Shown here in pieces: positions 13,082 to 62,421 of a stretch of DNA of 64,000 nucleotides. Origin of the DNA: Candidatus Omnitrophota bacterium (GTDB taxonomy: Bacteria; Omnitrophota; Gorgyraeia; Gygaellales; Profunditerraquicolaceae); assembly GCA_028716965.1 (NCBI GenBank), contig JAQUOV010000001.1, forward strand, positions 70,448-134,447. Direction: 5' to 3'. The notes beneath the pieces are model-generated. The model had not been told where the DNA came from and did no database searches. It saw only the letters and a list, made by a program, of their open reading frames with translations. How positions within the stretch are numbered: the first letter of the stretch is position 1; each line of letters opens with the position of its first letter. Position numbers and translations under genes: made by a program.

Positions 13082-13110
13082 TCATATGGAGTCGAATTAA
13101 ACGACTTATC

Positions 13111-15238: not shown

Positions 15239-15258
15239 TTTATTTTAGCAATTTAGGT

Positions 15259-22306: not shown

Positions 22307-22321
22307 AATTTATCCTCTTTC

Positions 22322-23955: not shown

Positions 23956-23956
23956 A

Positions 23957-34593: not shown

Positions 34594-36426
34594 TCAATTG
34601 CCTAAAAAAGGCTCAAGCGTTTCTTCAGAAACCGGTGTAAAATATAAGTCACGTATACGCAGTGATTCGGCTTTAAAACGCGAGCGTTCGGACAAAGACA
34701 GCGAATAGTAATATGTTAACGCCAAAGCAAGCTCTGAAGATGAATAACATACACGGGCAATCCCATCGGGTATAGCAACTAGCGGATTGTGGCTAAAACA
34801 ATTCTGCCTGGCCACAAAAATCACAGGCCTATTGCAAGCTAAGGCCTCAACAAGCGAGCTGGAATGTGTCCCAACCACAACCAATGCCCGGGAAAACTCC
34901 TCTTTAAGGGTCTTATCGCATAACTGCCCGGGCCATTCACCAATTTTTAAACTAAGGGAGCCCATATCCAAAAAAGGATGGCTCTTGATCCGAATCGCTA
35001 TATCCTGCACAAGTAACTTTTTCGCTTCTCGAACAAGGCTTAAGAGTTCAAGCGCCTCATCGTGGATATACGGGAGTAATACCAAAATATTCTTTTTAAT
35101 AACATCTTGATCAATATCAGGAAGATTATCAAACACATGGGCACTGCGTAGAGCAGCGCAAGGCAAGCATCTAAACCCATCGCTAAATGCCTTTGCCATT
35201 TCGCATTGTAATTTGCTGACACACAAAACTGTGTCCGGTACAACCCTGAATCTGACTTCTGTTTTAGTGGGAAAATGATTTAAGAAATTCAGCGAATGCA
35301 TAAACATCTGAACACCAATAAGTTTGGCTTTAGGGAATGCTTCCCGCGCTCCAAAAATAAAAGCCCGGTCAATTACCTGATTTTCGTACCAATCTAGAAT
35401 AATCTCCGGCGAAGGTTGATTTTGCTTAAACCTCATAAAAAAACGATAAATAAGCACTGCATACATAGGACCGGAAAAAAGCGCAAATCTTCGTTCCTCT
35501 TTTATTAATGGAGTAATATCTATCCCTAAAAAAGGCATAGTTTTAATACCCCTGCCAAAGAATCTTAACGGATAAAGAATAATACTGGCATAATCCCTAA
35601 AGCGCAAATAATCCTCAGGCAAGACAAACTGATAGTTGCTTTTACGCATCTGCTTATAAAGCGAATAAAAATTCATCTGGGCAATATCCAAAACAGGGTG
35701 AATCATAATACTATAACTTTTGGACTCTAAAAACTGGTACAAACCCGGATAATAAGGATCATAAAATGAATTACTATCTTGGAATGAATTGGCATGGATG
35801 AATGTATCGATAAGTATGCGTGGATGCCCTAAAATGGTTTTTTTCTGCTGTCCGTGCGCCCTAGTGAATGAAGCTGCCATAAGGCGGGATAGTAATTGAC
35901 AGATAAAAAAACAATAATTATGTAAGCTACTTAAGCTTCTTTTTATTGTCTTACCTATAAAGAAATGCCTGTAAAGAATTACTTTAACTCTTTCTTGCCT
36001 TAACCAAGCTGCCAAAACATTCGCCAATCCTTCAGAATCAACAAAAATTATAGTAGGCAACTCTAAAGAATTTTGACTAAAAATTCCCCTAATTATCTCA
36101 ACATAACAACAATTTTGAAAGAGATCGCTTTCGTATACATTTCTGCAAGAAACAGATTCAAACCACCATTCTTTATTGGTGCCCCGTAAATCGTTTAATT
36201 CATCCAGCCAATCAATGAACGGTTTACGAATTCGTTCAGCAACAATATTATGCAGTTTACCGACTATTATTTGCCTAAAATGGCTCGGCAGTTTATTTTC
36301 AAGGGGATTAACGGCTGAAAAATCTTTACCAAGATAAAGCCAGTTTATTGATTGACCGCGGTTCTTAAATCTTTTTACCGCGTAAGCATAATAACTAACT
36401 GGCAAGATTAATACTGAAGCGCTCAT
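34594..36426 (-). CDS. Large (610 aa) uncharacterized protein, possible GT-B-like transferase
   Basis: No canonical motif. The C-terminal VVVGTHSSSLVEALACNRPVIFV loosely resembles the donor-binding region of GT-B / glycerophosphotransferase folds. Confidence 0.3.
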   Translation of the reverse strand: MSASVLILPVSYYAYAVKRFKNRGQSINWLYLGKDFSAVNPLENKLPSHFRQIIVGKLHNIVAERIRKPFIDWLDELNDLRGTNKEWWFESVSCRNVYESDLFQNCCYVEIIRGIFSQNSLELPTIIFVDSEGLANVLAAWLRQERVKVILYRHFFIGKTIKRSLSSLHNYCFFICQLLSRLMAASFTRAHGQQKKTILGHPRILIDTFIHANSFQDSNSFYDPYYPGLYQFLESKSYSIMIHPVLDIAQMNFYSLYKQMRKSNYQFVLPEDYLRFRDYASIILYPLRFFGRGIKTMPFLGIDITPLIKEERRFALFSGPMYAVLIYRFFMRFKQNQPSPEIILDWYENQVIDRAFIFGAREAFPKAKLIGVQMFMHSLNFLNHFPTKTEVRFRVVPDTVLCVSKLQCEMAKAFSDGFRCLPCAALRSAHVFDNLPDIDQDVIKKNILVLLPYIHDEALELLSLVREAKKLLVQDIAIRIKSHPFLDMGSLSLKIGEWPGQLCDKTLKEEFSRALVVVGTHSSSLVEALACNRPVIFVARQNCFSHNPLVAIPDGIARVCYSSSELALALTYYYSLSLSERSRFKAESLRIRDLYFTPVSEETLEPFLGN

Positions 36427-37469
36427 AAAAACATGTTCTTTCTATTTAACCCATCTACAAAAAAACTTTTGATCAAATGGCGATTTTTAATTTTCAGCCT
36501 CTTCCTGTTCCGCAGAGGCCACGGTGTAAGATCCTTATAGAAACTATGGCATTTCTTGCATAATACAGGAGGAGACAACCGCTTCATCGAGCTGCGGATA
36601 GCCTCTGCGCGCTCCGATGCCCATATCTGACTAATACTTCCGTCTGACATTATATTACCGATCTTAAGCTCAAGATTCATATCTATACAACAGAGTGTTG
36701 CATCGCCAGTAGCGCTCACTGCCAGCATCTCAAAAGGTATTGAGCAAGGTTTCGGGATTTTAAGAATATAGTCCTTTGCCGCATGCAATACATTCTCTGC
36801 TGGAACCTGGCCTGCCCAGTCAATGCTGTCCACCGTCACCAGGCTGGTATTCTTAAATTTCTCAACAAATTGAAAACTTTCATAAAATTTATCAGTTGAA
36901 TCCTGATTTACCATGTTCTTTATAATGCCCACATGAACCGCTACATCAAATTTCTTCAGCCTATCCCTCTCCTCTAAAAGGAACCTAATATTATCCTTTA
37001 CTGTGGTAAATGACCCGCCGGTGCGTATTTTGGCGTAACTGTCATTAGAAAAACCATCAGGCCAGATACCTATAGAGTCAAAACCGGGAAGTAACAATTT
37101 AGCCACCACCTCCTTTTTTTCCAAAGAGACAGTAGTTGATATCCCGAAGTGAGTATTGGGAAGCTTTTGCCGAGCCCATGAAACAAAAACATCAAAATCA
37201 TTTCTCATGGTTATCTCGCCGAACATATGAAATCCTAAAAGCTTCAAATCCGGATAATCACGAGTTATGTCAACAATCACTTTCTCAAAGACTTCTTTCG
37301 GCATGTTCCCTCTTTTATTATTGGAATAAGTGCGGGGACAAAGCGGGCAACGTAAATTACATGCCCCTGTAATTTCAACAAAAACCTTTTGAGGGGGTGT
37401 AGTCTTCGGATTAAATGAATAATACTGTTGTAAACGTTTTAGTTTTGCAATCATCTGACTACTCGACAA
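36423..37469 (-). CDS. Radical SAM enzyme with C-terminal SPASM/twitch-like Cys-rich domain
   Basis: VEITGACNLRCPLCPR (CxxxCxxC) and a C-terminal CCIDMN...GNIMSDGSISQIWAS...CKKCHSF. Confidence 0.75.
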   Translation of the reverse strand: MSSSQMIAKLKRLQQYYSFNPKTTPPQKVFVEITGACNLRCPLCPRTYSNNKRGNMPKEVFEKVIVDITRDYPDLKLLGFHMFGEITMRNDFDVFVSWARQKLPNTHFGISTTVSLEKKEVVAKLLLPGFDSIGIWPDGFSNDSYAKIRTGGSFTTVKDNIRFLLEERDRLKKFDVAVHVGIIKNMVNQDSTDKFYESFQFVEKFKNTSLVTVDSIDWAGQVPAENVLHAAKDYILKIPKPCSIPFEMLAVSATGDATLCCIDMNLELKIGNIMSDGSISQIWASERAEAIRSSMKRLSPPVLCKKCHSFYKDLTPWPLRNRKRLKIKNRHLIKSFFVDGLNRKNMFL

Positions 37470-38967
37470 GATTCAATAAACCACTTTCTAAAAATTCATT
37501 TTTTAATTCATCGTAAATCTTTTGCCCTTCCGGAGTTTCAGCTTCAGCTTTTCGAATCTCCGTCCACCGGGATTCCGGGAATTTCACATACATATTAAAT
37601 GTCTTCACCAGGCCATTAACTTCTGATTGTGGAAATTGAGGCATATTCAAAAGTGAACCGCCAATAACAACTGACTGTACAATATCTTCGTAACTGATAA
37701 AACCTAAGCGCTCACATTCATCCCGTAACGGCGTACCATGAAACGGCGTAAATGGATAAGCATTACGATCCCATGATCTCACGAGCCGGTTAAACCTAAT
37801 AGTATCAAATGCAAGATCCCTGGTTTCATGAGGAAATCCTATAAGATTATTTACGCTGAAAGGAATGCCGGATTCTTCAATTAGCCTGAATTTTTCCAGC
37901 ATCGCCTGGTTGCTTATTCTACGATTGAGCACATTCTGCCTGAATTTCTCATTACCATGCTCAATACCAAATGACATCCGTGCGCAGTTGATCTTTTTTA
38001 AAGCGGCTAATCTGTCTTTGGTTATTGTTTCTACGCGTGTCTGGCACCAAAATGGTAACTTAATTTGTTGATACATTGAACAAAATTCCTCAAACTCTTC
38101 ATTAGTCCAACACAAAAATGTATCTGCCCAAAAATACAAATACTCAGCCTTCATTGTATCTTTGTAAAATAATAATTCTTTAAGGATATTTTCGTTTGTT
38201 TTTTTGCGTAAAAAAGAGCGCCCCTGTTCTTTCCGGTAAAGGATCATCTGCGCAGGAGAATTACAATACGCGCACGTATTGGGACAACCGCGGAATGTTT
38301 CAACGGGAAACATCCTATAAACCTTGCCCCCCATGGGCCGGTAAAAACGCGCTTCTTCAAAAATCGACATATCAATCAATGGATTTTTATTTATATCTAC
38401 CATCCTGAGCGGATTTTTCTTGATGGTTCCGTCTCCTTGCTTGACCCATAAATTCGTAACATCATCGTATTTCAAGCCGTTTTCCAGCCGATAACACAAC
38501 TCGACTAACGCATCCTCACCTTCACCGCGACAAATAATATCTACTTCCGGATAGCTTAATACTAAATCGGGGGCAAAAGTCGGAAAAACTCCCCCCGCAA
38601 TCGCGGGTATTTCCAGATCGCTCACCTTTGATAAAAGCTTAATCCCAAGCTTAAACATATCTTCCGTGCAGGAAAGCCCGATCAAATCCGGTTTAAAATC
38701 CAAAACGCTTGAGCGAAAATCATCAAAACAGTTTGTTGTTTTGCATGAAATCTGGCGCGGCATTTCAAACGGACGGGCCATTAATCGGTCAGATTTTGAC
38801 TTATCCGAATCCGCTTCCTTACCGTCAACCGACTTGTAGTAAGTTGTATCAAATAGCTGAACCTCATATCCTGCCCGTTTCAAAACAGCAGATAATAACC
38901 CAATAGCCGAGGGAAGCATATTCATTCCTCTTGCATTCGGATAAACAAGCATAACTTTAAACGCCAT
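37459..38967 (-). CDS. B12-binding radical SAM enzyme (class B)
   Basis: MAFKVMLVYPNARGMN...GYEVQLFD (B12 domain) and FRGCPNTCAYCNSP (CxxxCxxC). Confidence 0.8.
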   Translation of the reverse strand: MAFKVMLVYPNARGMNMLPSAIGLLSAVLKRAGYEVQLFDTTYYKSVDGKEADSDKSKSDRLMARPFEMPRQISCKTTNCFDDFRSSVLDFKPDLIGLSCTEDMFKLGIKLLSKVSDLEIPAIAGGVFPTFAPDLVLSYPEVDIICRGEGEDALVELCYRLENGLKYDDVTNLWVKQGDGTIKKNPLRMVDINKNPLIDMSIFEEARFYRPMGGKVYRMFPVETFRGCPNTCAYCNSPAQMILYRKEQGRSFLRKKTNENILKELLFYKDTMKAEYLYFWADTFLCWTNEEFEEFCSMYQQIKLPFWCQTRVETITKDRLAALKKINCARMSFGIEHGNEKFRQNVLNRRISNQAMLEKFRLIEESGIPFSVNNLIGFPHETRDLAFDTIRFNRLVRSWDRNAYPFTPFHGTPLRDECERLGFISYEDIVQSVVIGGSLLNMPQFPQSEVNGLVKTFNMYVKFPESRWTEIRKAEAETPEGQKIYDELKNEFLESGLLNLVE

Positions 38968-38982: not shown

Positions 38983-39624
38983 TCATAAGGTGTCCAAAAT
39001 TGCAGGGAGCTCAGAAAAATCATTCATTTTTAAACAATCGCTTGCTTTAAAAATATTCTCGTTATTCTTGATACGCGCGATAAACTTTACCCCGTTATCT
39101 TTTGCCGCTAAATAATCACTCATTGCATCTCCGATATATAAAGCACCCTGCGCGCTGATCTTATTATCCATAAGGATTTTCTTTACCGCATCAAACTTTG
39201 CCAGCGGGGCGCCATACACAGATATAAATATCTTATCTAAACCTCTCCTGCGCACGATATCACTTATCTCATCTTGAGGAGTTGCAGAAACAATAAATAA
39301 TTTGCTCTGTTTTGATCTGTTAATGAGAAATTCCTGAACCCCCTTCACGTAAGGAGCCTTAACTACGGCATCTAATACTAAAGAAGCGAATCTTGTGCAG
39401 AGAGAGTTGAATTCTTTATCATCAAGCTGCCGGTGCAGGATATTACGGTATATGTAGCGGAATTTGTCAAACCGGGATACCCCCATGTTGTCCTTATGAT
39501 ATGATACAACCTTTTCAACAACTCTCTCTCCTTCTATCTCAAAAAGTTTAGCGAAAGCCTCTGTTTTTATATCAGTGGACTCAACGATTACCCCGTCAAA
39601 ATCAAAGATTATTCCCTTAATCAT
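38983..39624 (-). CDS. HAD-superfamily hydrolase (phosphatase/beta-phosphoglucomutase-like)
   Basis: MIKGIIFDFDGVIV (DxDG motif I), then SATPQD (motif II) and GDAMSD (motif IV). Confidence 0.8.
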   Translation of the reverse strand: MIKGIIFDFDGVIVESTDIKTEAFAKLFEIEGERVVEKVVSYHKDNMGVSRFDKFRYIYRNILHRQLDDKEFNSLCTRFASLVLDAVVKAPYVKGVQEFLINRSKQSKLFIVSATPQDEISDIVRRRGLDKIFISVYGAPLAKFDAVKKILMDNKISAQGALYIGDAMSDYLAAKDNGVKFIARIKNNENIFKASDCLKMNDFSELPAILDTL

Positions 39625-40282
39625 TGAATTCTCCGATTACCATACAAGGCGCGCTATCAATGCCAGAAACTACTATCGGCGATATTATCACTCTGCGCAA
39701 AACGGGTAATTTAAGATTAATGCGCATATCTTCAACTAAAAGCAGAGCTCTATCTTGACCCTTGGAGTCTAAAAAAGCCCGATGCGCCTCCCTGCCAAGC
39801 TCTCTATTCTTAATTGAAGATATAGATAACCAATCTATACCTATGGCCCTTAGATTACGGCAGTTTTTCTTCAAATAAACCGCTACTTCCGGATGTATAC
39901 CCGGGTTTTGTTCTACATATTTCTTATGCCTTCTTAAGGCCGACCATCCTGACCTGAATATCAAGATATCGCACAAAGGATTTATTGCTTTCATCCATTT
40001 GCCGATCCTCAGTATCTCCGCGGGCCCCAAAGGGGTATTAATGACCTGCGGAGCTGTAAAAACCCATTCCGAGCACGGATAATCCTCTATACATTTTCCG
40101 TTATCAAAGAAATGGCGTGGGGCATCTATATGCGTACCCCAATGGCTTTCCATGGAAAACTTATAAACATTCGCGTTATCCCCGGATGATATGGCGCGTT
40201 TTGCCTTAATCCCCAGATCAGCCTTACCGCCATATACCGGCATACCCTGTGAAACGGGATAAGACAAATACCTGTATTTCAT
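39617..40282 (-). CDS. Cyclase-family metal-dependent hydrolase (kynurenine-formamidase-like fold)
   Basis: HWGTHIDAPRHFFDNG matches the HxGTHxDxPxH signature of PF04199 cyclase family proteins. Confidence 0.65.
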   Translation of the reverse strand: MKYRYLSYPVSQGMPVYGGKADLGIKAKRAISSGDNANVYKFSMESHWGTHIDAPRHFFDNGKCIEDYPCSEWVFTAPQVINTPLGPAEILRIGKWMKAINPLCDILIFRSGWSALRRHKKYVEQNPGIHPEVAVYLKKNCRNLRAIGIDWLSISSIKNRELGREAHRAFLDSKGQDRALLLVEDMRINLKLPVLRRVIISPIVVSGIDSAPCMVIGEFND

Positions 40283-41205
40283 CGTTTTTTCTTATCCTTG
40301 ATTACCATCCCATCGCAAGTAGGCAGTGGGCTGATCTGTTTATACGCATCATATACTGACTCCAGAATACCCTGGCTAAGATCCAAATAAGTTTTGCTAA
40401 TGAGCCGCCTACCGATCTTCGGGGCAAAAGAATACGGCGTAATCTCATAATGCGTATTCTCTTTTGAAGGAAGAAATTCCACTTTCACATTATTGCCTAA
40501 CATTTCCCTGATCATGAAAAATAAATCTTTAACCTTCATTTGCTGGTTTCCGGTTAAAATAACATGCTGGTTGACGAATTCATCAGACAGTATTTCTACG
40601 CTTCCCTTTGCGGCATCACAGACATGGATATACTCTCTAATCTCTTCCCCGTCACCATGCCGGGATATCCTATTCTGAGTCAAAGCCTGCCTTATAATAT
40701 TATAGATGAAGTTTCTATCATCTGCCCTGGGGCCATATAGCGAACCGTAACGCAAAATGGTGTATGGCAGATTGAATACTTCGTGATAATTTTCTATCAA
40801 GAGTTCACAGGCTTGTTTTGTGCTCCTGTAAAATGCTCCAGCTTTGCTATACACATAAAGGGAACTGGCAAAGACAAAACGCTTTGCCCCTGCTTTTCTG
40901 GCTGCCTCTAACAGGATAGAATTGCCAAGGATATTGCATTTTACGCTCTCAAGCGGCCTTTTGCTTGCCTCATCAATATCGGCAATGCCCGCAAAATTGT
41001 AAACTATATCGCAATTCTTGACGGCTGCCTCCACCTTCTTCTGGTCCAATATGTCGCCTGTTATCATAGACTGCGCTTTTCGTAAATGCGCTGAAGGCTT
41101 GATATCGTAAATTACTACCTTATACCCTGCATCATCTAATGCGTCCGCTACATGGCTGCCAAGAAATCCCGAACCTCCGAAAACTATCGCTTTCATTTTA
41201 ATCAT
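40279..41205 (-). CDS. NAD-dependent epimerase/dehydratase (SDR)
   Basis: MKAIVFGGSGFLGSHVADAL and a YRSTK (YxxxK) motif. Confidence 0.8.
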   Translation of the reverse strand: MIKMKAIVFGGSGFLGSHVADALDDAGYKVVIYDIKPSAHLRKAQSMITGDILDQKKVEAAVKNCDIVYNFAGIADIDEASKRPLESVKCNILGNSILLEAARKAGAKRFVFASSLYVYSKAGAFYRSTKQACELLIENYHEVFNLPYTILRYGSLYGPRADDRNFIYNIIRQALTQNRISRHGDGEEIREYIHVCDAAKGSVEILSDEFVNQHVILTGNQQMKVKDLFFMIREMLGNNVKVEFLPSKENTHYEITPYSFAPKIGRRLISKTYLDLSQGILESVYDAYKQISPLPTCDGMVIKDKKKR

Positions 41206-42113
41206 GCCCCCTCTTTTAAACCCTTAATTAAGTTTCTTACCGCTTCCAACTCCATATTTATCCTGGCCTCTTTGGCGTAAGAGCCTATATGCGGCGTAAG
41301 AATCACATTATCCAATTCCTTAAGCATCCCGCTGTAAGGCTCCTGCTCAAATACATCTATCGCTGCACCCGAAATATCGTTGTTCTTAAGCGCCTTAATC
41401 AAAGCGGCCTCTTCCACGGTTTCTCCGCGCGAAACATTTACGATCCAAGCTCCTTTTTTTAATGCCTTAAACTCTTTCTCTCCTAAAATCTTATCCGTAG
41501 AAGAGGCGTGAATCGTAAGAATATCCGCCCAGCGCAACAATTCTGTTTTCGGCATATTCTTAAATCCCGGATTCGAACTTTTTATGTTTGGGTCCGTATA
41601 GGAAATCTCACAACCAAACGGTTTTAATAACTCGGCTACTTTCTTCCCAATCTTTCCAAAACCGATTATGCCGATTTTCTTATTTGAAAGAAGGTTTCCC
41701 ATCAATTTTTGCCATTCCCCGCGCCGCATAGCCGCATCCATCTTATTTATTTTTCTTAACAGGTTCAACATTAGACCGACGGTTAGCTCTGCCACGGCAA
41801 GCGTTGGGGCATCAGGTGTATTTACTACCTTTATATTGTAATGTTTAGCCGCCTCAAGATCCACATTATCTAATCCTGCCCCACACCTGGAGATTACCTT
41901 TAGCCTTGGCAGAGTTGAAATTATATTTCGATCGATCAATTCTGTCCCGGCGATTAAGCCTGCGGCATCTTTTGCTAATTTAACTAATTCTTCAGGTTTT
42001 ATCTTACGGCCATAGGGGTTAGCCATTATTCTATAACCGCTCTTCTCTAGTAATTCGAGAGGAGACTTATCGTATTCTGCAAATGAAGTTGTCGAAATGG
42101 CTATAATTTTCAC
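41202..42113 (-). CDS. D-isomer-specific 2-hydroxyacid dehydrogenase (phosphoglycerate-dehydrogenase-like)
   Basis: GIIGFGKIGKKVAELLKPFGCEISYTD (NAD GxGxxG), then a catalytic R/E/H arrangement (SRG...E...TPHIG). Confidence 0.85.
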   Translation of the reverse strand: MKIIAISTTSFAEYDKSPLELLEKSGYRIMANPYGRKIKPEELVKLAKDAAGLIAGTELIDRNIISTLPRLKVISRCGAGLDNVDLEAAKHYNIKVVNTPDAPTLAVAELTVGLMLNLLRKINKMDAAMRRGEWQKLMGNLLSNKKIGIIGFGKIGKKVAELLKPFGCEISYTDPNIKSSNPGFKNMPKTELLRWADILTIHASSTDKILGEKEFKALKKGAWIVNVSRGETVEEAALIKALKNNDISGAAIDVFEQEPYSGMLKELDNVILTPHIGSYAKEARINMELEAVRNLIKGLKEGA

Positions 42114-42122
42114 CTTACCCTC

Positions 42123-42944
42123 CTACCAATCTTTATATTTAGAAGACCAGCTGCTATCCCTGCTAAGCACCAGGCCATAAAATCCCTCATAATCGCTCTT
42201 TCTCCAGTAAGGGCGCGTAACCCTTAATAAGCCTCTCTGCGGATATTGCAGATAGATATTTTCGGTTTTAATGCGCCAACCGGAGTGCAAAATAAGTAAT
42301 TTCCAATCGTTTGGGCTCAATTCAAAGATGTGCGTATTCTCGGCATAAACGTCACTTTGTGCACAGTGCCGAATATGATGTAATCCTACCCTGCTATTCG
42401 CAAGATAAGGTACGGTCACTATTAAATACTCTGCTTTTGTGCCTAATGACAAACTCCGCAAAAAATTGCACGGATCCATTAGATGCTCTAATGTCTCAAA
42501 ACATAAGAAAATATCTGCTTTAATGTCGTAGTTTTCCAAGTTTTCAGCTTTTGCGCAAACAGCGTCCAAACCCTTAGCCTTGATCCTGGCAACCGCTTTT
42601 TCATCAAGATTCACGCTCATTGATCTTACCTTAACCTTTTGCGAATAAAGGCCTTTTATGTATTGTATGTGAGTGCCGGCAGAATCACCAATATCAACAA
42701 TTACGGCTGAATCCTGAAAATTACGCATCGCCTTATCAAGCAGAGACATTTGGAAAGCATGCATTGCCCTCACTTTTGCCTTAAGATAACCTTCCTTAAC
42801 TTCAAACAAGCTGTATTGCTGGCTTATATCAGGGACTATTCTTTCTAACTTGTCCACCAACACTTCAAGCCCCTGCTCTCTAACAGCGCACCTGATCGAT
42901 CTTGTCAGTATTGTTTGCACGGGGATTATACTGCTTATATTCAT
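42123..42944 (-). CDS. Class I SAM-dependent methyltransferase
   Basis: VVDIGDSAGTHIQYIKG (motif I-like) and LCFETLEHL (motif II/III). Confidence 0.55.
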   Translation of the reverse strand: MNISSIIPVQTILTRSIRCAVREQGLEVLVDKLERIVPDISQQYSLFEVKEGYLKAKVRAMHAFQMSLLDKAMRNFQDSAVIVDIGDSAGTHIQYIKGLYSQKVKVRSMSVNLDEKAVARIKAKGLDAVCAKAENLENYDIKADIFLCFETLEHLMDPCNFLRSLSLGTKAEYLIVTVPYLANSRVGLHHIRHCAQSDVYAENTHIFELSPNDWKLLILHSGWRIKTENIYLQYPQRGLLRVTRPYWRKSDYEGFYGLVLSRDSSWSSKYKDW

Positions 42945-42949
42945 TTTAT

Positions 42950-43723
42950 TTATCCCTGCCTGTACCTTTCAAATAATTTATCCGATGCCATCATCGCGCT
43001 CACCGTTTCCAGGTCAGCCAGGGTATCCACAGACTTGGTCTCATAATTTGTTAAGACCATCTTCACCTTTTGCCCATTCTCAAGTATTCGCATCATGTCA
43101 ACAGATTCAAATATCTCTAAAGGGGTCGGCTTCATCTTTGTATATTCCAAAAGAAATTCTTTCTTAAATGGTATTATACAAACCTGTTTGAGCATTGTAA
43201 CATTAGGAGAACCCTTTTTTCTTGAAGGTATGGGTTCTCTGGAAAAATATAACGCGTTATTAAGTTTATCCACTACTACCTTCACTTCGTTAGGATCCTC
43301 AAACTCTTTGACAGTCTTTATCCGGGCCATCAAATTCGTTATTTTAACTGCACTATCTTCCAAGAGAGGCTTCAGAGCCTCATCGATCATTTCCGGATAA
43401 GTGAGCGGCTCATCCCCCTGGATCATTACAACGATATCCACTTTCTTACCGGTCTCATTTTCTATTTTCAAAACTGCTTCGGCAGCGCGGTCCGATGCCC
43501 GCTCATGGGTGGCAGCAGTCATAACCGCCTTTGCGCCTAATGCATCCAAGTATTGTTTTATTTCTTGATCGCAGGTAGCAACATAAACCTCATTCATCAG
43601 TTTCGACATCTTGCTTCTCAGATAAACATGGCCAATCATGGGAATACCACATATTTTAGCCAGTGGTTTGCCGGGAAACCTTGAAGAAGCCATACGGCCA
43701 GGAATAATCCCGATGATATTCAT
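42950..43723 (-). CDS. KdsB/NeuA-like CMP-sugar cytidylyltransferase (CMP-ulosonate/nonulosonate synthetase)
   Basis: MNIIGIIPGRMASSRFPGKPLAKICGIPMIGHV parallels the KdsB N-terminus (IPARYASTRLPGKPL). Start trimmed to the ATG at 43723, one nt after the upstream stop; the track's 299-aa form carries a non-conserved leader. Confidence 0.75.
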   Translation of the reverse strand: MNIIGIIPGRMASSRFPGKPLAKICGIPMIGHVYLRSKMSKLMNEVYVATCDQEIKQYLDALGAKAVMTAATHERASDRAAEAVLKIENETGKKVDIVVMIQGDEPLTYPEMIDEALKPLLEDSAVKITNLMARIKTVKEFEDPNEVKVVVDKLNNALYFSREPIPSRKKGSPNVTMLKQVCIIPFKKEFLLEYTKMKPTPLEIFESVDMMRILENGQKVKMVLTNYETKSVDTLADLETVSAMMASDKLFERYRQG

Positions 43724-43724
43724 T

Positions 43725-44720
43725 TTACAATCCTTTGCTTTTGCGCGCCACAACCAGCATATGGCTTGATAACCGGTTTTCAGATAAAAATTTTTGAAAA
43801 TTACGTAATACCTGATCATCCTGACCCAAAAGATAATCGATAAATTCATTCGTTTTCATATCCAAACCAGATTTTCTTTCTTTAAGAATGATATCTACGT
43901 CCAATTCTCCGGGGGTCTCTACAGACACCGGTTCAAAACCAGCTCTCTCAAGAAGACGCGCGAGAGAAACAGGATTAAAATAGTTAAGATGTTCCGGCGG
44001 CGTAATATTCTTCGTCTGCTCCTTTAGTATTTTAAAGTCAAATCCTTCTCCATTAGGCGTAGCTATAGATATAAATCCTTTTGTCTCTAATGCTCTGTTG
44101 CATGAGATTAAAAATTCAATAGGCTCAAATAGATGTTCTATTAAATCATTTATGGATATTAGAGCTACTGAAGCCGGATCAATATTATCAACAGTACCAA
44201 GACGGGCATCAAGGCTTGCTCTTTTGCACGCCCCCACGCAATCGTTAGATAAATCCAAAGCAATAATATTGCGAAAAAAACCCTCCTTCTTCAAGCATGC
44301 GGCGAACGCTCCGGATCCAGCTCCAATATCAACGGCCGTTCCTGTCGAATTAATGCCTAATCTTTTCATTATATCAATTATCCTCTTCGCCCTTGGCGTA
44401 TATTGAATTTTTTTTCTTTCGATATCGGCTTCCAATAAAAGCTTAGTCCACATAGCAAGAGAAGGATAATTGTTGTAATAGAATTTTAACAGTGTATCGT
44501 CCGGCCTTGGAGAACAATAAAGAGTTTGGCAATCACTGCAATACTTATGGTTAAAGCCGTATTTATTAAAAGATTTGCGTCCGTCCGCGCCACAGGCCGG
44601 ACATTTTACCTCAACAAATTGCCCAGAATATCTGGCAAAAAAATCCTTCGCATCTGCCTCACGCTGAGAGAGAATATCTTCATAAAGCTTTTTCGGCCTC
44701 ATTAAATCTATCTTCTTCAT
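43725..44720 (-). CDS. SAM-dependent methyltransferase with N-terminal Cys4 zinc-ribbon
   Basis: CPACG...CSDC, then AVDIGAGSGAFAACLKKEG (motif I) and LDLS. Start trimmed to the ATG at 44720, which forms an ATGA overlap with the aldolase stop. Confidence 0.55.
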   Translation of the reverse strand: MKKIDLMRPKKLYEDILSQREADAKDFFARYSGQFVEVKCPACGADGRKSFNKYGFNHKYCSDCQTLYCSPRPDDTLLKFYYNNYPSLAMWTKLLLEADIERKKIQYTPRAKRIIDIMKRLGINSTGTAVDIGAGSGAFAACLKKEGFFRNIIALDLSNDCVGACKRASLDARLGTVDNIDPASVALISINDLIEHLFEPIEFLISCNRALETKGFISIATPNGEGFDFKILKEQTKNITPPEHLNYFNPVSLARLLERAGFEPVSVETPGELDVDIILKERKSGLDMKTNEFIDYLLGQDDQVLRNFQKFLSENRLSSHMLVVARKSKGL

Positions 44721-45478
44721 CGGTATCGTTTCGTCATAGGAACACAAGATACTGCTTTCTGCAAAAATATTGTATCCATCCCATAAGCTATGAATTTAAA
44801 TCCCTGGGCGATCCTGCGCTTCAGATCGCGCTCGTCAGGATTAACTATATGTATGCCCAGCAGTTTATCTGAATCCTTCACCGCCTTGATTATTTTGTCA
44901 AGAACGGCATTAAATCTCTTATCGTTAAATTTACCGGGTATCCCCATTGAACCCGAAAGGTCATAAGGCCCGATGATACAGGCATCAATCCCTTTTAAAT
45001 TTAAGATCGAATCCAGGTTATCCAAAGCGTTAATATGCTCTATCTGGACTACCAGAATACTTGACCTATTTGCTTTACGGATATAACTCTCAAATTTCTT
45101 GCCGTATTGATGAGCCCTGCCTAAACCAAAGCTCCTTTTCCCAGTAGGAGGATAATTGACGGCATCGAGAGCCTTACGCGCGTCTTCTTCACAATTAATC
45201 ATCGGCACGATAACCCCTCCTGCGCCCGCATCCATGACGCGGCGTATTGTGCTGGGATCGTTTTCATTCAAACGAACAAGCGGAACTCCCCCTGAAAGAT
45301 TAATCACCTGAATCAACTTATAAACGTAATTTAAATCTATTAACCCGTGCTCCATATCAATAGCAAGCCAATCAAAGCCGGCTTTCGCCATAATCTCAGC
45401 ACTAAAAACATCCGGAAGCTGGATCCAGCTTCCTATTGATAACCTTTTTTTGCTTATCGAACTTTTTAGGTCTGTCAT
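44717..45478 (-). CDS. HpcH/HpaI-family class II (metal-dependent) pyruvate aldolase
   Basis: SIGSWIQLPDVFSAEIMAKAGFDWLAIDMEHGLID is the canonical N-terminal beta-strand/E-H region of HpcH/HpaI / citrate-lyase-beta-like aldolases. The size (253 aa) fits. Confidence 0.8.
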   Translation of the reverse strand: MTDLKSSISKKRLSIGSWIQLPDVFSAEIMAKAGFDWLAIDMEHGLIDLNYVYKLIQVINLSGGVPLVRLNENDPSTIRRVMDAGAGGVIVPMINCEEDARKALDAVNYPPTGKRSFGLGRAHQYGKKFESYIRKANRSSILVVQIEHINALDNLDSILNLKGIDACIIGPYDLSGSMGIPGKFNDKRFNAVLDKIIKAVKDSDKLLGIHIVNPDERDLKRRIAQGFKFIAYGMDTIFLQKAVSCVPMTKRYR

Positions 45479-45508: not shown

Positions 45509-47326
45509 CTATTCCACGCCTTCTTGCGATAATACTTTCTTACTCGCTATGTTTTGAAAAACAGGCGAGCGAAGGAATAACTCATTATAATTACCTTGAT
45601 CTGCTATTTTGCCGTGCTCCAGGACATAAATAAGATCCGCATGCTCAAGCGTGGCCAGACGATGAGTAACCAGTATAATAGTCATGCGGTCCTTTAAATT
45701 CTTAAGGGCTGCGTACAACTGTGCTTCGGTGTGGCCGTCTAATGCGGAACTCGCCTCATCAAGTATGAGTATTTCCGGATTCCTGTATAAAGCGCGAGCT
45801 ATGCCTATCCTCTGTCTCTGTCCCCCGGAAATCCTGACTCCTCTTTCACCTACTTTAGTATCCAAGCCTTCAGGCAGGGTTTTAATGAAAACTTCCAGCT
45901 GTGCGACTCTAATCGCATATTCAACCCTTGCACGGTCTATCTCCTGCTCAAGAACACCAAAAGCGACATTAGAAATAATACTGCCATCTAACAAAAAGAT
46001 ATGTTGAGGAACATACCCTATTTTACCCTGGTATTGGACCATGTTATCCTGGCTAATGGGCATATCGCAATAATCCAGGCGGCCTTTAAGCGGAGTAAGT
46101 AATCCTGTGAGCAGGTCAATAACTGTGCTCTTACCTGATCCAGTTTCACCGACAATAGCGCAAATACGATGAAGCGGAAAAAATATAGTTAAGCCTTCAA
46201 AAATTGGATGGGCTGCTGTTTGATAGCAAAACGTCACTTCTCTAAGAGAAATATTTTTAACTTGTGAGGAAACATTGATAGTCAAAACACCCTGATGACG
46301 ATCGTAATCATTTTCTTCCTTCAACACATCGTAAACGATATTCAAGCTATTCCCGCCAAAATGAAAAGATGCTACACTTTCGTATATTTTAGAAAAGGAA
46401 GCTGAAAGACGCATCATCGCTACCGCAAATACTGACATCATCGGAATAAACTCAATAAAGGGCTTATGCGAATATATAACAAAAAATACACCTAAAAGCG
46501 CCAGAATGACAAAAACTGTTTCAAGTATCTGCTTAGGTAAACTCGACACAGTAATAAATTTTACCAGGGCACTTGTATAACTTTTTGTAGATGTAAAATA
46601 TCCAGAAGCAAAATAATCATGGACATTGTATATTTTGATCTCTTTAACAGCCCCCAGAGATTCAAGAGCATTTTTATACAGCATCACGCTAAAAGTCTCG
46701 CGCTGCGCAGCATATGCCTTTATGCGTTTCCTAAAAAAAACGTTGACCAATAACGAAAGCAACCCGAAAATAACAAAGATGGCTATCGTCAATACAGGAT
46801 ATGTGTAGATAAGAAACAAGCATACGCCAGCGAGAATAATAACCTCGGAGGCGATGGATATAGCAGGACTTAATAAATAGTTAACGCAATTGTTCGCCTC
46901 TGATGAAGTATTTTTAAATAATTCGGATGAATTGTAAACCAAATGGTAGGAGTATGGTTTTTCTAAATAAGACGAAAGAACTTTTGACGTCAGACGACTA
47001 TAGATATTACCTAAAACCTTTTGTTTCTGATAAAGCATAAAAACTGAATACGCAGATCTTGCCAATAGAATCACGCAGGTCACTGCAATTAAAATAGCCA
47101 CAAATAAAAAAGTATCAGGAGAGCCACAAACATGATAAAGCCAGTTTAATACCGGGGTTGAACTGATCTTCTGAGGGAATATAAATAAAGTCATAAGAGG
47201 AAGTACTATCGCAATGCTGAATGTCTCTAAGAGCGACAATAGCATAGCGCCCACTCCCAACAAAACTAGCCGCCTCTTTTCAGATGCAGTAAGAATATTT
47301 CTTAACTTACTTAACAGTTCTTTCAT
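45509..47326 (-). CDS. ABC exporter, fused permease-ATPase (MsbA/ABCB-type)
   Basis: Six N-terminal TM helices, then Walker A GETGSGKST, signature LSGGQRQRIGIARAL, Walker B ILILDEASSALD and an H-loop VTHRL. Confidence 0.9.
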   Translation of the reverse strand: MKELLSKLRNILTASEKRRLVLLGVGAMLLSLLETFSIAIVLPLMTLFIFPQKISSTPVLNWLYHVCGSPDTFLFVAILIAVTCVILLARSAYSVFMLYQKQKVLGNIYSRLTSKVLSSYLEKPYSYHLVYNSSELFKNTSSEANNCVNYLLSPAISIASEVIILAGVCLFLIYTYPVLTIAIFVIFGLLSLLVNVFFRKRIKAYAAQRETFSVMLYKNALESLGAVKEIKIYNVHDYFASGYFTSTKSYTSALVKFITVSSLPKQILETVFVILALLGVFFVIYSHKPFIEFIPMMSVFAVAMMRLSASFSKIYESVASFHFGGNSLNIVYDVLKEENDYDRHQGVLTINVSSQVKNISLREVTFCYQTAAHPIFEGLTIFFPLHRICAIVGETGSGKSTVIDLLTGLLTPLKGRLDYCDMPISQDNMVQYQGKIGYVPQHIFLLDGSIISNVAFGVLEQEIDRARVEYAIRVAQLEVFIKTLPEGLDTKVGERGVRISGGQRQRIGIARALYRNPEILILDEASSALDGHTEAQLYAALKNLKDRMTIILVTHRLATLEHADLIYVLEHGKIADQGNYNELFLRSPVFQNIASKKVLSQEGVE

Positions 47327-47342: not shown

Positions 47343-49097
47343 TTAAAGTTTTCTTACAAACTGAGCCCATTCATTACGCCATTTCGTTGACGAACGGGCA
47401 AACTGAAAACAAAAATCATTCTTTGCACGTTGTAAATCAGGATTATTCCACCACACTAAAACATCTGGCCAAATATCATTTATCTTTTTAGCTGCCGTTT
47501 CTGGTCTATCATACAATATTCCGACAGACCGTAATTTATCAAAATACGGGGAGGCAGCTTCACAGACTCTGAAATGCGCAGGATCCCAATAAATAATTGT
47601 AGGAGTATTCATGGCCAGCGCCTCAAGAAAACTGGTAGTCTGATGATCAATCACGGCAAGCCTTGTCCGAGAAAAAAAGTTGCTTAATGACCCTGTGGTG
47701 AGAAACTGATTTTCAGGCAAAATTTGCTTAATAAACTCTAGTTCTTTGGTGCCATAATCATTGAAATAAGGCCTATATTTTACTTTTTTGAGTATATCTT
47801 TTCTAAGATGCTTCAAAAATATCATTTTACTTTTCATGTAATCAATTATCTGTCCCGGTTCCAGGTAATTATTCAACCTATACAGATAGGTGCCTGTTTC
47901 TGTTCCTACAAAAATAATACTATCTTCTTTTTCTGCATGCTTTTTCAACTTGCTAAGCATTGGAGAGGGTAATGCAAGATAATTCGCATTATATATATGC
48001 TTATGCCCCCATCCCCATGTTATAAACTCTCCGGAAGTTTCATATTCAAGCTTACCAACTGGAAACGATATAGATTGACCGTAAACACCGCCGTGTTGAG
48101 TAGAAATCCAACGGCCGCCGCTCTCCAGAATAAAAGCTATATCAGAACACTCTTTTTCTGATAAATACACATCCATACCCACCCATATTTTAATATTCGG
48201 GTCGATCTTTGTGTTATATTTGTAAACGCTCAGCAGCATATCCGGTATATGCTTTAACAATATCTCTTGTACAATCTTTTCAAATTTATTTTTCGCTCCG
48301 AAATCCAAGCGGACACGATTAAGATCTTCCCTTGCAATCTTAATCATCTTAGCAGGAATATCTACCTTTTTTTTTAATAAAAATACGGGGTCACGAACAA
48401 ACTGTAAATACATCTTATCTGTTAAAGACAAGCCGTATATCTTACCTAAGAAAACAGAAGAAGTAAAAAAACTATTTAGATAATTTTTAACGTTTTCTTT
48501 AGTTGATAATAAAATTTCTCTGATGCCGCTTTTAAAACTTTTTTCTTGACTAATGGCTCTCACATTTTGAAATATACTTACCTTAGTACAGTCTAAGAAA
48601 TCAAATCGCGCGTGATTTATAATATCTGTCATCAATAGAAGATTATGATAATGGCCTTCTGTAATCCTTGAGATAAAACCCCAGAAATCTCTAACCGTGG
48701 GATCATATTGATCAAGAATCTTAACCTCGAATCTTTCCTTAAAATTCTCTCCAATATATTCCAGCCTTCTATAGCGATCGTAAACAATACCCAACCAATG
48801 ATGCAGCCATAATATCATATAAGCATTCCAAAATTTTTCGCTATACGCCAAACGATGCAAGCTATTCATAATGCTGGCCATCTTTGGAATAATCCGATTA
48901 TATAATTCATCTATATATAACGTTGAATCAAGCATATCCTGTGACTTTTCCCATGGCGATGGCGCCAACTGAAATTTATCTTGTTCAAAAAAATCATATT
49001 TATCGTTATAACAAAAACAGTGCGCGCCAAGAAAAAGCGCCTGCTTCTCATTAGTTGGCCAAGTTTCTTTATGTCCAGTTAATACTAGTTCTCGCAT
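47343..49097 (-). CDS. Large (584 aa) uncharacterized soluble protein, candidate novel transferase
   Basis: No recognised motif. It lies between the ABC exporter and pseI. There is a faint GT-B-like C-terminal region (TIIYWDP...). Confidence 0.3.
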   Translation of the reverse strand: MRELVLTGHKETWPTNEKQALFLGAHCFCYNDKYDFFEQDKFQLAPSPWEKSQDMLDSTLYIDELYNRIIPKMASIMNSLHRLAYSEKFWNAYMILWLHHWLGIVYDRYRRLEYIGENFKERFEVKILDQYDPTVRDFWGFISRITEGHYHNLLLMTDIINHARFDFLDCTKVSIFQNVRAISQEKSFKSGIREILLSTKENVKNYLNSFFTSSVFLGKIYGLSLTDKMYLQFVRDPVFLLKKKVDIPAKMIKIAREDLNRVRLDFGAKNKFEKIVQEILLKHIPDMLLSVYKYNTKIDPNIKIWVGMDVYLSEKECSDIAFILESGGRWISTQHGGVYGQSISFPVGKLEYETSGEFITWGWGHKHIYNANYLALPSPMLSKLKKHAEKEDSIIFVGTETGTYLYRLNNYLEPGQIIDYMKSKMIFLKHLRKDILKKVKYRPYFNDYGTKELEFIKQILPENQFLTTGSLSNFFSRTRLAVIDHQTTSFLEALAMNTPTIIYWDPAHFRVCEAASPYFDKLRSVGILYDRPETAAKKINDIWPDVLVWWNNPDLQRAKNDFCFQFARSSTKWRNEWAQFVRKL

Positions 49098-51339: not shown

Positions 51340-51342
51340 ATC

Positions 51343-52410: not shown

Positions 52411-52425
52411 ATGACTAACCTCACG

Positions 52426-53316: not shown

Positions 53317-53336
53317 AATTTTATCCCTTTAAGACC

Positions 53337-54353: not shown

Positions 54354-54369
54354 AATATAAATTTCTCCC

Positions 54370-62412: not shown

Positions 62413-62421
62413 TTTACCTCC

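Follow-up and report, generated by a model that had tools for sequence, protein, structure and literature searches.

What does a 2-oxoacid aldolase do next to a Kdo-type cytidylyltransferase in a giant surface-sugar gene island? The question is raised by positions 38983-45478 of a 64,000-nt window, the whole stretch of DNA that was analysed, from an uncultured Omnitrophica bacterium (Candidatus Omnitrophota bacterium GCA_028716965.1, contig JAQUOV010000001.1, 70,448-134,447, forward strand). ORF and HMM searches gave eight consecutive, tightly packed ORFs on the minus strand, with HMM matches for all eight that bear out the gene identifications of the original prediction. Neighbouring genes touch each other or share 4-8 nt, and a signal scan of the block found no promoter or terminator signals above chance, which indicates that the eight genes belong to one long operon. 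They are listed here with their neighbours.

34594..36426, minus strand: GT-B-fold protein, 610 aa, with an invariant HP motif
37459..38967, minus strand: B12-binding radical SAM enzyme, probable C-methylase (B12-binding + Radical_SAM)
38983..39624, minus strand: HAD-IA phosphatase, 213 aa (HAD_2, 2.8e-17)
39617..40282, minus strand: cyclase-fold, KynB-like metal hydrolase, 221 aa (Cyclase PF04199, 7.3e-21)
40279..41205, minus strand: extended SDR, GalE-like (NDP-hexose 4-epimerase type), 308 aa (Epimerase, 6.8e-44)
41202..42113, minus strand: D-isomer 2-hydroxyacid dehydrogenase, short PGDH-like, 303 aa (2-Hacid_dh_C, 3.1e-53)
42123..42944, minus strand: methyltransferase B, 273 aa, weak class I MTase signature (Methyltransf_11, 5e-5)
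42950..43723, minus strand: KdsB-type cytidylyltransferase, 257 aa (CTP_transf_3, 2.6e-48)
43725..44747, minus strand: SAM methyltransferase A, ORF of 340 aa (Methyltransf_23, 2e-16)
44717..45478, minus strand: HpcH/HpaI class II metal-dependent 2-oxoacid aldolase, 253 aa (HpcH_HpaI PF03328, 4.7e-32)
45509..47326, minus strand: fused TMD-NBD ABC exporter, candidate flippase (ABC_membrane + ABC_tran)
47343..49097, minus strand: LIC12162-family transferase, 584 aa (TIGR04331, 378 bits, cut-off 225)

We propose, with a probability of roughly one half, that a CMP-activated acidic keto-sugar, a Kdo-related ulosonic acid, is made by this block as one form of a self-contained biosynthetic cassette with a wide distribution. 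No account of such a cassette was found in the literature searched. For its substrates, order of steps and product, we infer the following scheme. A dedicated anabolic class II aldolase would add the enolate of a 2-oxoacid to an aldose, free or phosphorylated, yielding the carbon skeleton and standing in for PEP-dependent KdsA or NeuB. The HAD phosphatase would then strip a phosphate off an intermediate in a KdsC-like manner, and the KdsB-type enzyme would add CMP, also drawing the reversible aldol reaction forward; aldolase equilibria favour cleavage, which counts against the proposal of an aldolase-built sugar. Fourth, the PGDH-like dehydrogenase would most likely provide or interconvert the 2-oxoacid, our preferred sub-hypothesis being that D-glycerate or 3-phosphoglycerate is converted to hydroxypyruvate, giving a 3-hydroxylated, Ko-like acid. 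Fifth, the GalE-like SDR would epimerise or oxidise the sugar; the roles given to these last two enzymes are guesses. In the Omnitrophica version, the product would be tailored by the two SAM methyltransferases, the B12-radical-SAM methylase and the cyclase-fold hydrolase. Finally, the GT-B protein and/or the LIC12162 transferase, together with the ABC flippase, would place the sugar on a lipid-linked surface glycan.

The pairing of HpcH and KdsB-like genes recurs across genomes, a co-occurrence that the original prediction had proposed to check. In a set of 83 aldolase loci from bacteria and archaea, with families assigned by clustering, 74 have a CTP_transf_3 gene no more than 8 kb from the aldolase, and NeuB is usually not nearby. 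Partners within 8 kb were also scored in the 50 loci with flanks of 6 kb or more to the left and right (well-flanked loci): 40 have the KdsB-like gene, 41 the dehydrogenase, 34 the SDR and 33 the HAD phosphatase, and all four occur in 27, 23 of them without NeuB. From the parts list first put forward as a single pathway, the aldolase, the 2-hydroxyacid dehydrogenase and the cytidylyltransferase make up a core trio, usually with the phosphatase and the SDR; the cyclase and both methyltransferases, like the B12-radical-SAM enzymes, are accessory only.

The linkage is conserved across bacteria and archaea independently of NeuB. The same parts are found in Omnitrophica relatives (L001) and Saganbacteria (L003), beside topoisomerase VI and without NeuB in Methanoregula (L005), in Campylobacter iguaniorum and Sulfurimonas hydrogeniphila, and, pared down to an operon of five genes close to LptF/LptG, in Nitrosomonas and Nitrosospira. 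Archaeal carriers comprise Methanoregula, Methanoperedens, Hadarchaeum, Thermoplasmatales and Woesearchaeota; further carriers are Dehalococcoidia, Syntrophomonadaceae and Patescibacteria, which are monoderm or devoid of LPS. Since the same gene set is present in dozens of unrelated genomes, its association is far beyond chance. The cassette consists of a shared core and variable accessory genes, is spread over hundreds of bacteria and archaea, and has cultured organisms among its hosts. Against the proposal, several loci (L019, L022, L030, L061 and L083) have no KdsB-like gene within 8 kb despite the presence of aldolase, dehydrogenase, SDR and HAD genes. One locus (L089), also a point against it, retains the dehydrogenase, the SDR, the cyclase and a HAD-GT-B protein, with no HpcH and a different CTP_transf_3, suggesting that these four may work as a unit of their own, with no strict dependence on the aldolase.

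The true start of the cytidylyltransferase is Met43 of ORF 42950-43849, and the corrected gene (42950-43723, 257 aa) corresponds to NCBI protein P0151, named KdsB. The enzyme exceeds the cut-offs of two KdsB models (NF009905, 306.5 bits versus 255; TIGR00466, 163.6 versus 155.2) and scores 44.8 bits on the PseF model, whose cut-off is 205.7. Its closest PDB structure is E. coli K-CKS (1gq9, 6.6e-41), and the catalytic and nucleotide-binding residues are intact (equivalents of R10, R15, K19, QGDEP and D235). Residues that do not vary among three canonical KdsB sequences are exchanged (H181Q, Y185I, Y187F, E210D, Q211M, D50C and S74R), and the replacement residues are themselves invariant within the cassette group, which is recognised by its residue signature. 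These changes remodel the sugar pocket relative to canonical KdsB.

Could this enzyme simply be the PseF of a neighbouring pathway? As a rule it is not, given its KdsB-type HMM match and the absence of NeuB within 8 kb in 32 of the 40 well-flanked loci having a KdsB-like gene. Locally, the distinction is less sharp: the window holds PseB, PseC, PseG, PseH-like and PseI genes, an HMM search found no PseF in its 64 kb, and a PseF-like double role is therefore possible for the KdsB-like enzyme here. From this arises an alternative in which CMP activation of the neighbouring pseudaminic acid, or of another nonulosonic acid, falls to the KdsB-like enzyme, and the aldolase, dehydrogenase, phosphatase and methyltransferases produce a small methylated hydroxy-acid N- or O-acyl substituent of that sugar, for example a glycerate derivative or a 2,4-dihydroxy acid. 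Besides the incomplete Pse set, three possible synthases in the window are matched by only two CTP_transf_3 genes, and in L001, L003 and L085 the cassette cytidylyltransferase is the only one seen within 10 kb of NeuB. In addition, the successive action of an aldolase and a 2-hydroxyacid dehydrogenase would lead naturally to 2,4-dihydroxy acids, and methylated glyceroyl groups are known on Pse and Leg (SugarBase preprint). Nevertheless, we consider this alternative unlikely, in view of the NeuB-free majority of loci, the bare five-gene module of the nitrosomonads, the low PseF score, and a core without acyl-activating enzyme or acyltransferase. Moreover, a separate CTP_transf_3 gene accompanies NeuB in C. 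iguaniorum; the same is probable for some eight further loci, in most of which this second gene gave only a weak match (23-46 bits). More generally, the Pse, Leg and Neu pathways follow the same logic as the proposed cassette, since an ulosonic acid is built, CMP-activated and transferred, and these pathways often adjoin it, as do candidate transferases of the LIC12162, Maf-like and GT-B (HP motif) types. However, the cassette synthase is not NeuB, its cytidylyltransferase is KdsB-type rather than PseF or NeuA, and most loci are NeuB-free.

A second alternative is closer to the Kdo pathway (KdsD-KdsA-KdsC-KdsB), with which the cassette shares a KdsB-family cytidylyltransferase, a HAD phosphatase and the proposed succession of 2-oxo acid C-C bond formation and CMP activation; in some variant loci, a SIS-domain sugar-phosphate isomerase resembling KdsD is present as well. 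The cassette would then be a PEP-independent route to ordinary Kdo for LPS or capsule, with the aldolase replacing KdsA, the HAD enzyme replacing KdsC, and a true KdsB. The scores above the NCBIfam KdsB cut-offs, the NCBI name and the position of the Nitrosospira module near LptF/LptG agree with this idea. In contrast, the systematic changes at KdsB-invariant pocket positions, the occurrence in archaea and LPS-free lineages, and the presence of a core dehydrogenase, a frequent SDR, methyltransferases and aminotransferases, which have no role in Kdo synthesis, make ordinary Kdo an improbable product. Further differences from the Kdo pathway are a HAD phosphatase of type IA, where KdsC is of type IIIA, and the presence of a class II pyruvate aldolase instead of KdsA (PEP-dependent DAHP_synth_1), for which HMM search of the 64-kb window gave no match.

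The preferred reading, a dedicated cassette for a Kdo-related acid, calls for an anabolic aldolase. The closest PDB structure is E. coli HpaI (4b5s, 1.9e-44; ~38% identity), and inspection of the active site, as the original prediction had suggested, revealed all catalytic and metal residues: H44, R69, E147 and D173 correspond to HpaI H45, R70, E149 and D175 and are invariant in alignment A1. Fold and metal/Arg/His machinery are thus common to HpaI, RhmA (YfaU), GarL and SwHKA, enzymes of a type that joins pyruvate or hydroxypyruvate to C2-C5 aldehydes in vitro (PMC8560999, PMC11194214); HpcH-family members form KDGal from pyruvate and glyceraldehyde (PMC8560999), and SwHKA accepts hydroxypyruvate (PMC11194214). 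However, the aldolase falls under every equivalog cut-off (HpaI, 194 versus 369; RhmA, 162 versus 441; GarL, 159 versus 407) and belongs to a distinct clade, carried by at least 596 GTDB species, that shares 28-42% identity with HpaI, RhmA and GarL of E. coli, these three being 45-57% identical to one another. H148, Y172, H210, S17, G88 and F129 are invariant solely within this clade, and the first three adjoin the metal ligands. The aldolase gene is translationally coupled in its operon; the likely start of methyltransferase A is the ATG at 44720, which overlaps the aldolase stop codon. That the enzyme merely performs cleavage of the usual HpaI, RhmA or GarL kind and is present in the island by accident, as its HpaI identity, complete catalytic set and the RhmA or GarL labels of homologues in JGI auto-annotations might suggest, is scarcely credible and appears largely refuted by the separate clade, the sub-cut-off scores, the translational coupling, and a setting with glycan genes, a dehydrogenase and a cytidylyltransferase as usual partners and no hpa, rhm or gar neighbours in the 83 bacterial and archaeal loci.

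The dehydrogenase, found in 58 of the 83 loci, is second only to the cytidylyltransferase as aldolase partner. Its best PDB match is P. horikoshii PGDH (1wwk, 3.7e-56), with human PHGDH at ~1e-49; its top NCBIfam match is PGDH, at 224 bits below the cut-off of 454. Motif inspection of the dehydrogenase did not find the 'VRS' arginine motif known from short PGDHs, which counts against the proposal. The SDR (55/83 loci) has the GxxGxxG and YxxxK motifs and best matches UDP-hexose, UDP-GlcNAc and UDP-GlcA 4-epimerases (4zrm, 1.3e-25; 6dnt; 6zl6; MoeE5). The HAD phosphatase (41/83 loci) has its DxD motif at residues 8-10 and, as nearest solved relative, the sugar-phosphate phosphatase TM1254. An IMPase-family phosphatase is present instead in six loci, which points to retention of the phosphatase function through non-orthologous replacement. 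The cyclase is found in only 19 loci; it carries an HxGTHxDxPxH motif (residues 47-57) and weakly matches 1r61 and kynurenine formamidases.

Accessory genes are shared more sparsely. Methyltransferase A, which has a Cys-rich motif at its N terminus, belongs to a family present in 29 of the 83 loci, with orthologues above 400 bits inside the cassette in L003, L005, L008, L028 and L035. Orthologues of methyltransferase B occur in L001 (466 bits), L020, L036 and L089, and those of the B12-radical-SAM enzyme (387-481 bits) within the cassette in L007, L015, L020 and L028.

Transfer and export genes also keep their places. The ABC exporter lies directly upstream of the cassette, a position conserved in L001 (1036 bits), L014, L015 and L034 and occupied by a Wzx-type flippase in L003, L091 and L092; in L005, a Wzx-type flippase is close to the cassette on the opposite strand. 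The position of the LIC12162 transferase is kept in L001, L027, L029, L077 and C. iguaniorum (L091). The 610-aa GT-B protein may be either a CMP-sugar transferase or an NDP-sugar hydrolase; the HP motif is described as common to CMP-Kdo- and CMP-sialic-acid-dependent glycosyltransferases (PMC10148158). In protein P0128, the HAD phosphatase is fused to a GT-B protein. Such a link between GT-B and HAD phosphatase recalls TPS/TPP, SPS/SPP, MpgS/MpgP and Kdn-9-P synthase/phosphatase; unlike these pairs, to none of which it has sequence similarity, the cassette pair sits in a larger unit with a CMP-transferase.

Profile HMM searches recovered exactly the eight genes that the original prediction had listed for the block (38983-45478, minus strand), namely an HpcH/HpaI aldolase, methyltransferases A and B, a KdsB-type cytidylyltransferase, a PGDH-like dehydrogenase, a GalE-like SDR, a cyclase-fold hydrolase and a HAD phosphatase. 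Neighbouring genes abut or share a few bases, and the catalytic motifs are intact in every block enzyme that has recognisable ones. A promoter and terminator scan gave no signal beyond chance. The whole 64-kb window is one minus-strand surface-glycan island. Besides two NeuB-type synthases and a Bac_transf initiating transferase, it encodes GT2, GT4 and Wzy/Wzx proteins. Radical-SAM genes are present too, four of the B12-binding and others of the SPASM type, as are genes for a GDP-mannose dehydratase, a C-methyltransferase and an aminotransferase.

We propose that the cassette encodes an aldolase-first route to a CMP-glycoside that is placed on a surface glycan. Taken as a whole, we give this reading a probability of about 0.5; we infer all substrates and the order of the steps. 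The aldolase would act in the anabolic direction and join the enolate of a 2-oxoacid to an aldose or its phosphate. The phosphatase would take off the phosphate, and the KdsB-type enzyme would make the CMP-glycoside, thereby pulling the reversible aldol step. The SDR, the methyltransferases, a radical-SAM enzyme and the cyclase-fold hydrolase would tailor the product, and a GT-B, LIC12162 or Maf-like transferase would attach it to a glycan, linked to lipid or protein, that would then be flipped outward. The closest known systems, the Kdo and nonulosonic acid pathways, follow the same logic, but the cassette has another type of synthase and a dehydrogenase in its core. To our knowledge, every textbook route to CMP-keto-sugars (Kdo, sialic, legionaminic and pseudaminic acids) begins with a PEP-dependent synthase of the KdsA or NeuB type. 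No description of the cassette was found in the literature searched, where papers on Leptospira and cyanophages that mention kdsB proved to have no bearing on it, and the database names of its proteins are generic ('3-deoxy-manno-octulosonate cytidylyltransferase', 'aldolase/citrate lyase family', the auto-assigned 'RhmA/GarL').

Homologues of the aldolase at 50-88% identity occur in Omnitrophica, Saganbacteria, Margulisbacteria, Patescibacteria and the archaeon Methanoregula, in loci with the same gene set. A close Omnitrophica relative (L001) has the genes in nearly the same order, with the cytidylyltransferase before the first methyltransferase and an ABC exporter and a LIC12162 gene upstream. 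The Saganbacteria locus (L003) has, in addition, a gene for a hexapeptide acyltransferase and one for a third methyltransferase, and the Methanoregula cassette (L005) adjoins topoisomerase VI, with NeuB absent across 20 kb. One genome per GTDB species was scanned with sequence patterns, and aldolases of this type were detected in at least 596 species, spread over many bacterial phyla and several archaeal orders. The best 80 loci from these at least 596 species, eight of them from archaeal MAGs, were analysed; their hosts include Dehalococcoidia, Syntrophomonadaceae and Patescibacteria, as well as cultured Nitrosomonas, Nitrosospira and Draconibacterium.

The window proteins were searched against the six-frame ORFs of all loci, and partners were counted in the 50 loci where the aldolase has 6 kb or more on each side. 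The co-occurrence of HpcH and KdsB-like genes across genomes, which the original prediction had left to be checked, holds: within 8 kb of the aldolase, a KdsB-like gene is present in 40 of the 50 loci. The dehydrogenase is found in 41/50, the SDR in 34/50 and the HAD in 33/50 at the same distance. All four partners are present together in 27/50 loci, and together without NeuB in 23/50; NeuB itself lies within 8 kb in 11/50. Unsupervised clustering of all neighbour ORFs within 8 kb in 83 loci gave an agreeing picture, with the CTP_transf_3 family in 74 loci, the dehydrogenase in 58, the extended SDR in 55, the HAD in 41, the methyltransferase A family in 29, the cyclase in 19 and NeuB in 13. 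The cassette is a conserved, NeuB-independent unit. In nitrosomonads it is a bare operon (KdsB-like, HpcH, dehydrogenase, SDR, HAD), flanked in Nitrosospira briensis by a GT2 gene and an unknown protein on one side and by LptF/LptG on the other. In N. briensis Nsp8 (NZ_FOVJ01000002.1), the five genes occupy 9196-13275 of locus L075. The complete genomes of Campylobacter iguaniorum (CP010995.1) and Sulfurimonas hydrogeniphila, reached via the KdsB-like subfamily, both carry it.

An alternative is that the cassette supplies an acyl substituent and that its KdsB-like enzyme is a surrogate for PseF. This is plausible locally, in the window, where a complete pseudaminic-acid set, its enzymes scoring above or near their cut-offs, occupies the region 49098-57855 and no PseF was found anywhere in 64 kb:

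49098-50144, minus strand: PseI
50839-51339, minus strand: PseH-like GNAT
53337-54353, minus strand: PseG
55673-56878, minus strand: PseC
56833-57855, minus strand: PseB

Interleaved with the Pse genes in this region are a class-III aminotransferase, a methyltransferase, a SPASM radical-SAM gene and WbqC. The only other CTP_transf_3 enzyme of the window, at 31127-31927 next to the second NeuB, is not a PseF (36.5 against a cut-off of 205.7) and not a KdsB either, and the window has three potential synthases against two cytidylyltransferases. The KdsB-like enzyme may therefore also serve Pse here, or PseF may be located beyond the window. Across genomes, the acyl-substituent reading is contradicted by the NeuB-free loci, and we consider it unlikely. 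The same loci, together with a PseF (TIGR03584) score of 44.8 against the cut-off of 205.7, dispose in general of the suspicion that the cytidylyltransferase is simply the PseF of the pse pathway; what stands of it is a possible dual role in this window. In C. iguaniorum, the NeuB adjoining the cassette has its own 229-aa CTP_transf_3.

The cytidylyltransferase starts at Met43 of the listed ORF and covers 42950-43723 (minus strand). It scores above the cut-offs of both NF009905 (306.5 against 255) and TIGR00466 (kdsB; 163.6 against 155.2). Equivalents of the nucleotide- and Mg-binding residues are kept (R10, R15, K19, Q98-G-D100-E-P and D235). At other positions, invariant in the three canonical enzymes used as references (E. 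coli KdsB, K-CKS and Coxiella KdsB), the clade has invariant replacements: H181Q, Y185I, Y187F, E210D, Q211M, D50C and S74R. In the E. coli structures, these positions probably line or contact the Kdo site; no published list of Kdo-contacting KdsB residues was found in the literature looked at. Because the nucleotide and Mg residues are kept and other KdsB-invariant positions are replaced, the sequences suggest that the KdsB-like clade performs the same chemistry on a different sugar. By its residues at these positions and by linkage to KdsA, KdsC and KdsD, the enzyme falls outside canonical KdsB, and neither KdsA nor KdsD was found within the 64-kb window. The subfamily is very large; among its best 120 matches, identity is about 70%. 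Dehalococcoidia, Syntrophomonadaceae and Patescibacteria are monoderm. An alternative route to ordinary Kdo is contradicted both by such monoderm and archaeal hosts and by the altered KdsB pocket, and is very improbable.

The aldolase belongs to the HpcH/HpaI class II superfamily (PF03328, 111.5 bits against a cut-off of 25). Its active site, another point left to be checked, is intact: H44, R69, E147 and D173 align with H45, R70, E149 and D175 of HpaI and are invariant in 38 homologues. In class II aldolases, the Glu and Asp are metal ligands and the Arg and His are catalytic (PMC8560999). The scores lie below the equivalog cut-offs of HpaI (194 against 368.8), RhmA (161.7 against 441) and GarL (159.4 against 406.75). 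In a neighbour-joining tree without bootstrap, built from loci fetched by clade-derived patterns and thus informative on separation and context rather than on full family history, the 83 glycan-context aldolases group into a clade of their own, away from HpaI, RhmA and GarL of E. coli. They share 28-42% identity with these three enzymes, which are 45-57% identical to each other. No hpa, rhm or gar-type neighbours were found among the 83 loci. The grouping with catabolic HpaI/HpcH enzymes that would have spoken against the original prediction is thus not seen, and a stray catabolic aldolase is barely conceivable. PEP-mutase or phosphonate chemistry, CDP-glycerate-type activation and a tartronate-semialdehyde (GarL-like) route were also considered and dropped, as no gene supports them.

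Within the aldolase-first route, the nature of the donor can be approached from the aldolase and the dehydrogenase. Beside the metal ligands, the clade has invariant H148 (T150 in HpaI) and Y172 (A174 in HpaI), and also H210; these additional His, Tyr and His residues could make room for a polar C3 substituent. HpcH-family enzymes accept hydroxypyruvate in vitro (PMC11194214). The dehydrogenase has PGDHs as its closest PDB relatives, scores 224.5 against a cut-off of 454 with TIGR01327 (PGDH), and possesses the catalytic Arg, Glu and His. Its 'AGT' replaces the 'VRS' motif that we take to be a feature of short PGDHs. It might make a special donor, hydroxypyruvate, from D-glycerate or 3-phosphoglycerate. 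This role is favoured by the place of the dehydrogenase in the core trio and by the fact that ordinary pyruvate would need no supplier, but we hold it to be doubtful. Hydroxypyruvate as donor would lead to a 3-hydroxy, Ko-like ulosonic acid. Only tentatively, and against the odds, can the cassette be put forward as the first PEP-independent aldolase route to a nucleotide-activated ulosonic acid, using hydroxypyruvate and placing a new class of 3-hydroxylated CMP-keto-sugars on bacterial and archaeal surfaces; the version of the window would be heavily methylated. The SDR has the GxxGxxG and YxxxK motifs, 4-epimerases as top PDB matches and a GalE (TIGR01179) score of 92 against a cut-off of 262.

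Across the loci, the aldolase, the 2-hydroxyacid dehydrogenase and the CTP_transf_3 enzyme form an invariant core trio, around which two variants are seen. In variant A, the type of the window, the trio is joined by the extended SDR and a phosphatase, which is a HAD in 41 loci and an IMPase-family enzyme in six HAD-less loci; this non-orthologous replacement is an argument for a phosphorylated intermediate as an integral part of the pathway. In variant B (L016, L024, L026, L032, L054 and L065), a SIS-domain sugar-phosphate isomerase, a classic SDR, a dehydroquinate-synthase-like enzyme and a GFO/IDH/MocA oxidoreductase replace the extended SDR and the HAD. The SIS and dehydroquinate-synthase-like enzymes point to sugar phosphates or DAHP-/Kdo8P-like omega-phospho-ulosonates as intermediates; alternatively, the latter enzyme hints at carbocycle formation. 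Accessory tailoring genes encode methyltransferases, hexapeptide acyltransferases, DegT aminotransferases and a B12-radical-SAM enzyme, whose orthologues lie within the cassette in four loci. One further locus (L089; logan:SRR29054612 contig, 1-15747) has no HpcH and a non-KdsB CTP_transf_3. It keeps orthologues of the dehydrogenase, SDR, cyclase and methyltransferase B, its HAD is fused to a homologue of the 610-aa GT-B protein described below (P0128, 834 aa), and it has instead a truncated pyruvate-kinase-like barrel, an ATP sulfurylase and a sulfatase-like gene. Since these genes are kept without HpcH and the KdsB-type enzyme, L089 gives the strongest hint of a sub-module of its own, made of dehydrogenase, SDR, cyclase and HAD-GT-B. 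The sulfurylase and pyruvate-kinase pair also lies 3' of the cassette in L003.

After the cassette there typically comes a protein of 500-600 aa without family assignment. The AlphaFold model of the window copy (34594-36426, minus strand; 610 aa) is confident (pLDDT 87, pTM 0.87) and has a GT-B fold, in which H483 and E527 are invariant and P484 and S522-S523 largely conserved. An HP motif is common to CMP-Kdo- and CMP-sialic-acid-dependent GT-B enzymes (PMC10148158). NeuC-type hydrolysing epimerases match the protein equally well, which leaves a CMP-sugar transferase and an NDP-sugar hydrolase as equally open predictions from the model. No useful sequence relatives of this protein or of the methyltransferase were found among PDB entries. 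Upstream, the aldolase is preceded by a flippase (ABC or Wzx type) and often by a LIC12162 transferase, also in C. iguaniorum, and Maf-like (MptE/DUF115) proteins flank the cassette in three loci. Two further proteins of the window come into consideration:

47343-49097, minus strand: LIC12162-family transferase, 584 aa
57803-59752, minus strand: 649-aa protein, no family

No mutual relation between these two and the 610-aa protein was detected with phmmer, and all three are candidate ulosonic-acid transferases. A possible alternative transferase is a conserved protein of about 428 aa without Pfam family. It adjoins the cassette at L075 7569-8888 (minus strand), at L060 8719-10005 (plus strand) and in 21 other loci, with hosts among nitrosomonads, a Desulfobacteraceae MAG and a Thermoplasmatales archaeon.

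Genome mining for CMP-keto-sugars depends on markers of the KdsA or NeuB type. The cassette is widespread, crosses domains and escapes such mining, so that, if the proposal is true, a whole class of surface acid sugars has been missed and many genes labelled 'KdsB' or 'RhmA/GarL' are misnamed. Hydroxypyruvate aldolase activity, hitherto only an in vitro promiscuity, would gain a first physiological role, and an anabolic class II aldolase would be on offer for biocatalysis. Mass spectrometry of environmental bacteria is revealing unexplained CMP-linked alpha-keto acids (SugarBase preprint), which the cassette could also help to assign. The proposal is testable in cultured carriers (C. iguaniorum, S. 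hydrogeniphila, N. briensis and Nitrosomonas marina).

The island is unusually rich in radical-SAM genes:

8555-10219, 29604-31130, 37459-38967 and 59765-61177: B12-binding radical SAM
36423-37469 and 51343-52410: SPASM radical SAM

This richness suggests sugar C-methylation or other radical tailoring, and may be linked to 'higher-carbon' CMP-ulosonic acids, unexplained examples of which were seen by mass spectrometry in Magnetospirillum (SugarBase preprint). The second NeuB-type synthase (31941-32954, minus strand) scores below both the NeuB and PseI cut-offs, and its neighbouring CTP_transf_3 (minus strand) is divergent, KdsB models matching its N-terminal half only. With a nitroreductase, an aldo-keto reductase and a B12-radical-SAM gene also present, the segment 29604-34501 (minus strand) may be a third unusual CMP-sugar module. 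A GDP-mannose 4,6-dehydratase, a NUDIX hydrolase, an NDP-hexose C-methyltransferase (Methyltransf_13/14) and a DegT aminotransferase at 21323-25075 (minus strand) are a separate module for a C-methylated amino-deoxy sugar. Finally, 61177-63958 (minus strand) encodes a 411-aa PP-loop ('SGGKDS') protein followed by a HisH-like GATase and a HisF-like cyclase, a trio that, judged by its sequence motifs, presumably resembles the N-acetyl-sugar amidotransferase set that makes acetamidino groups.
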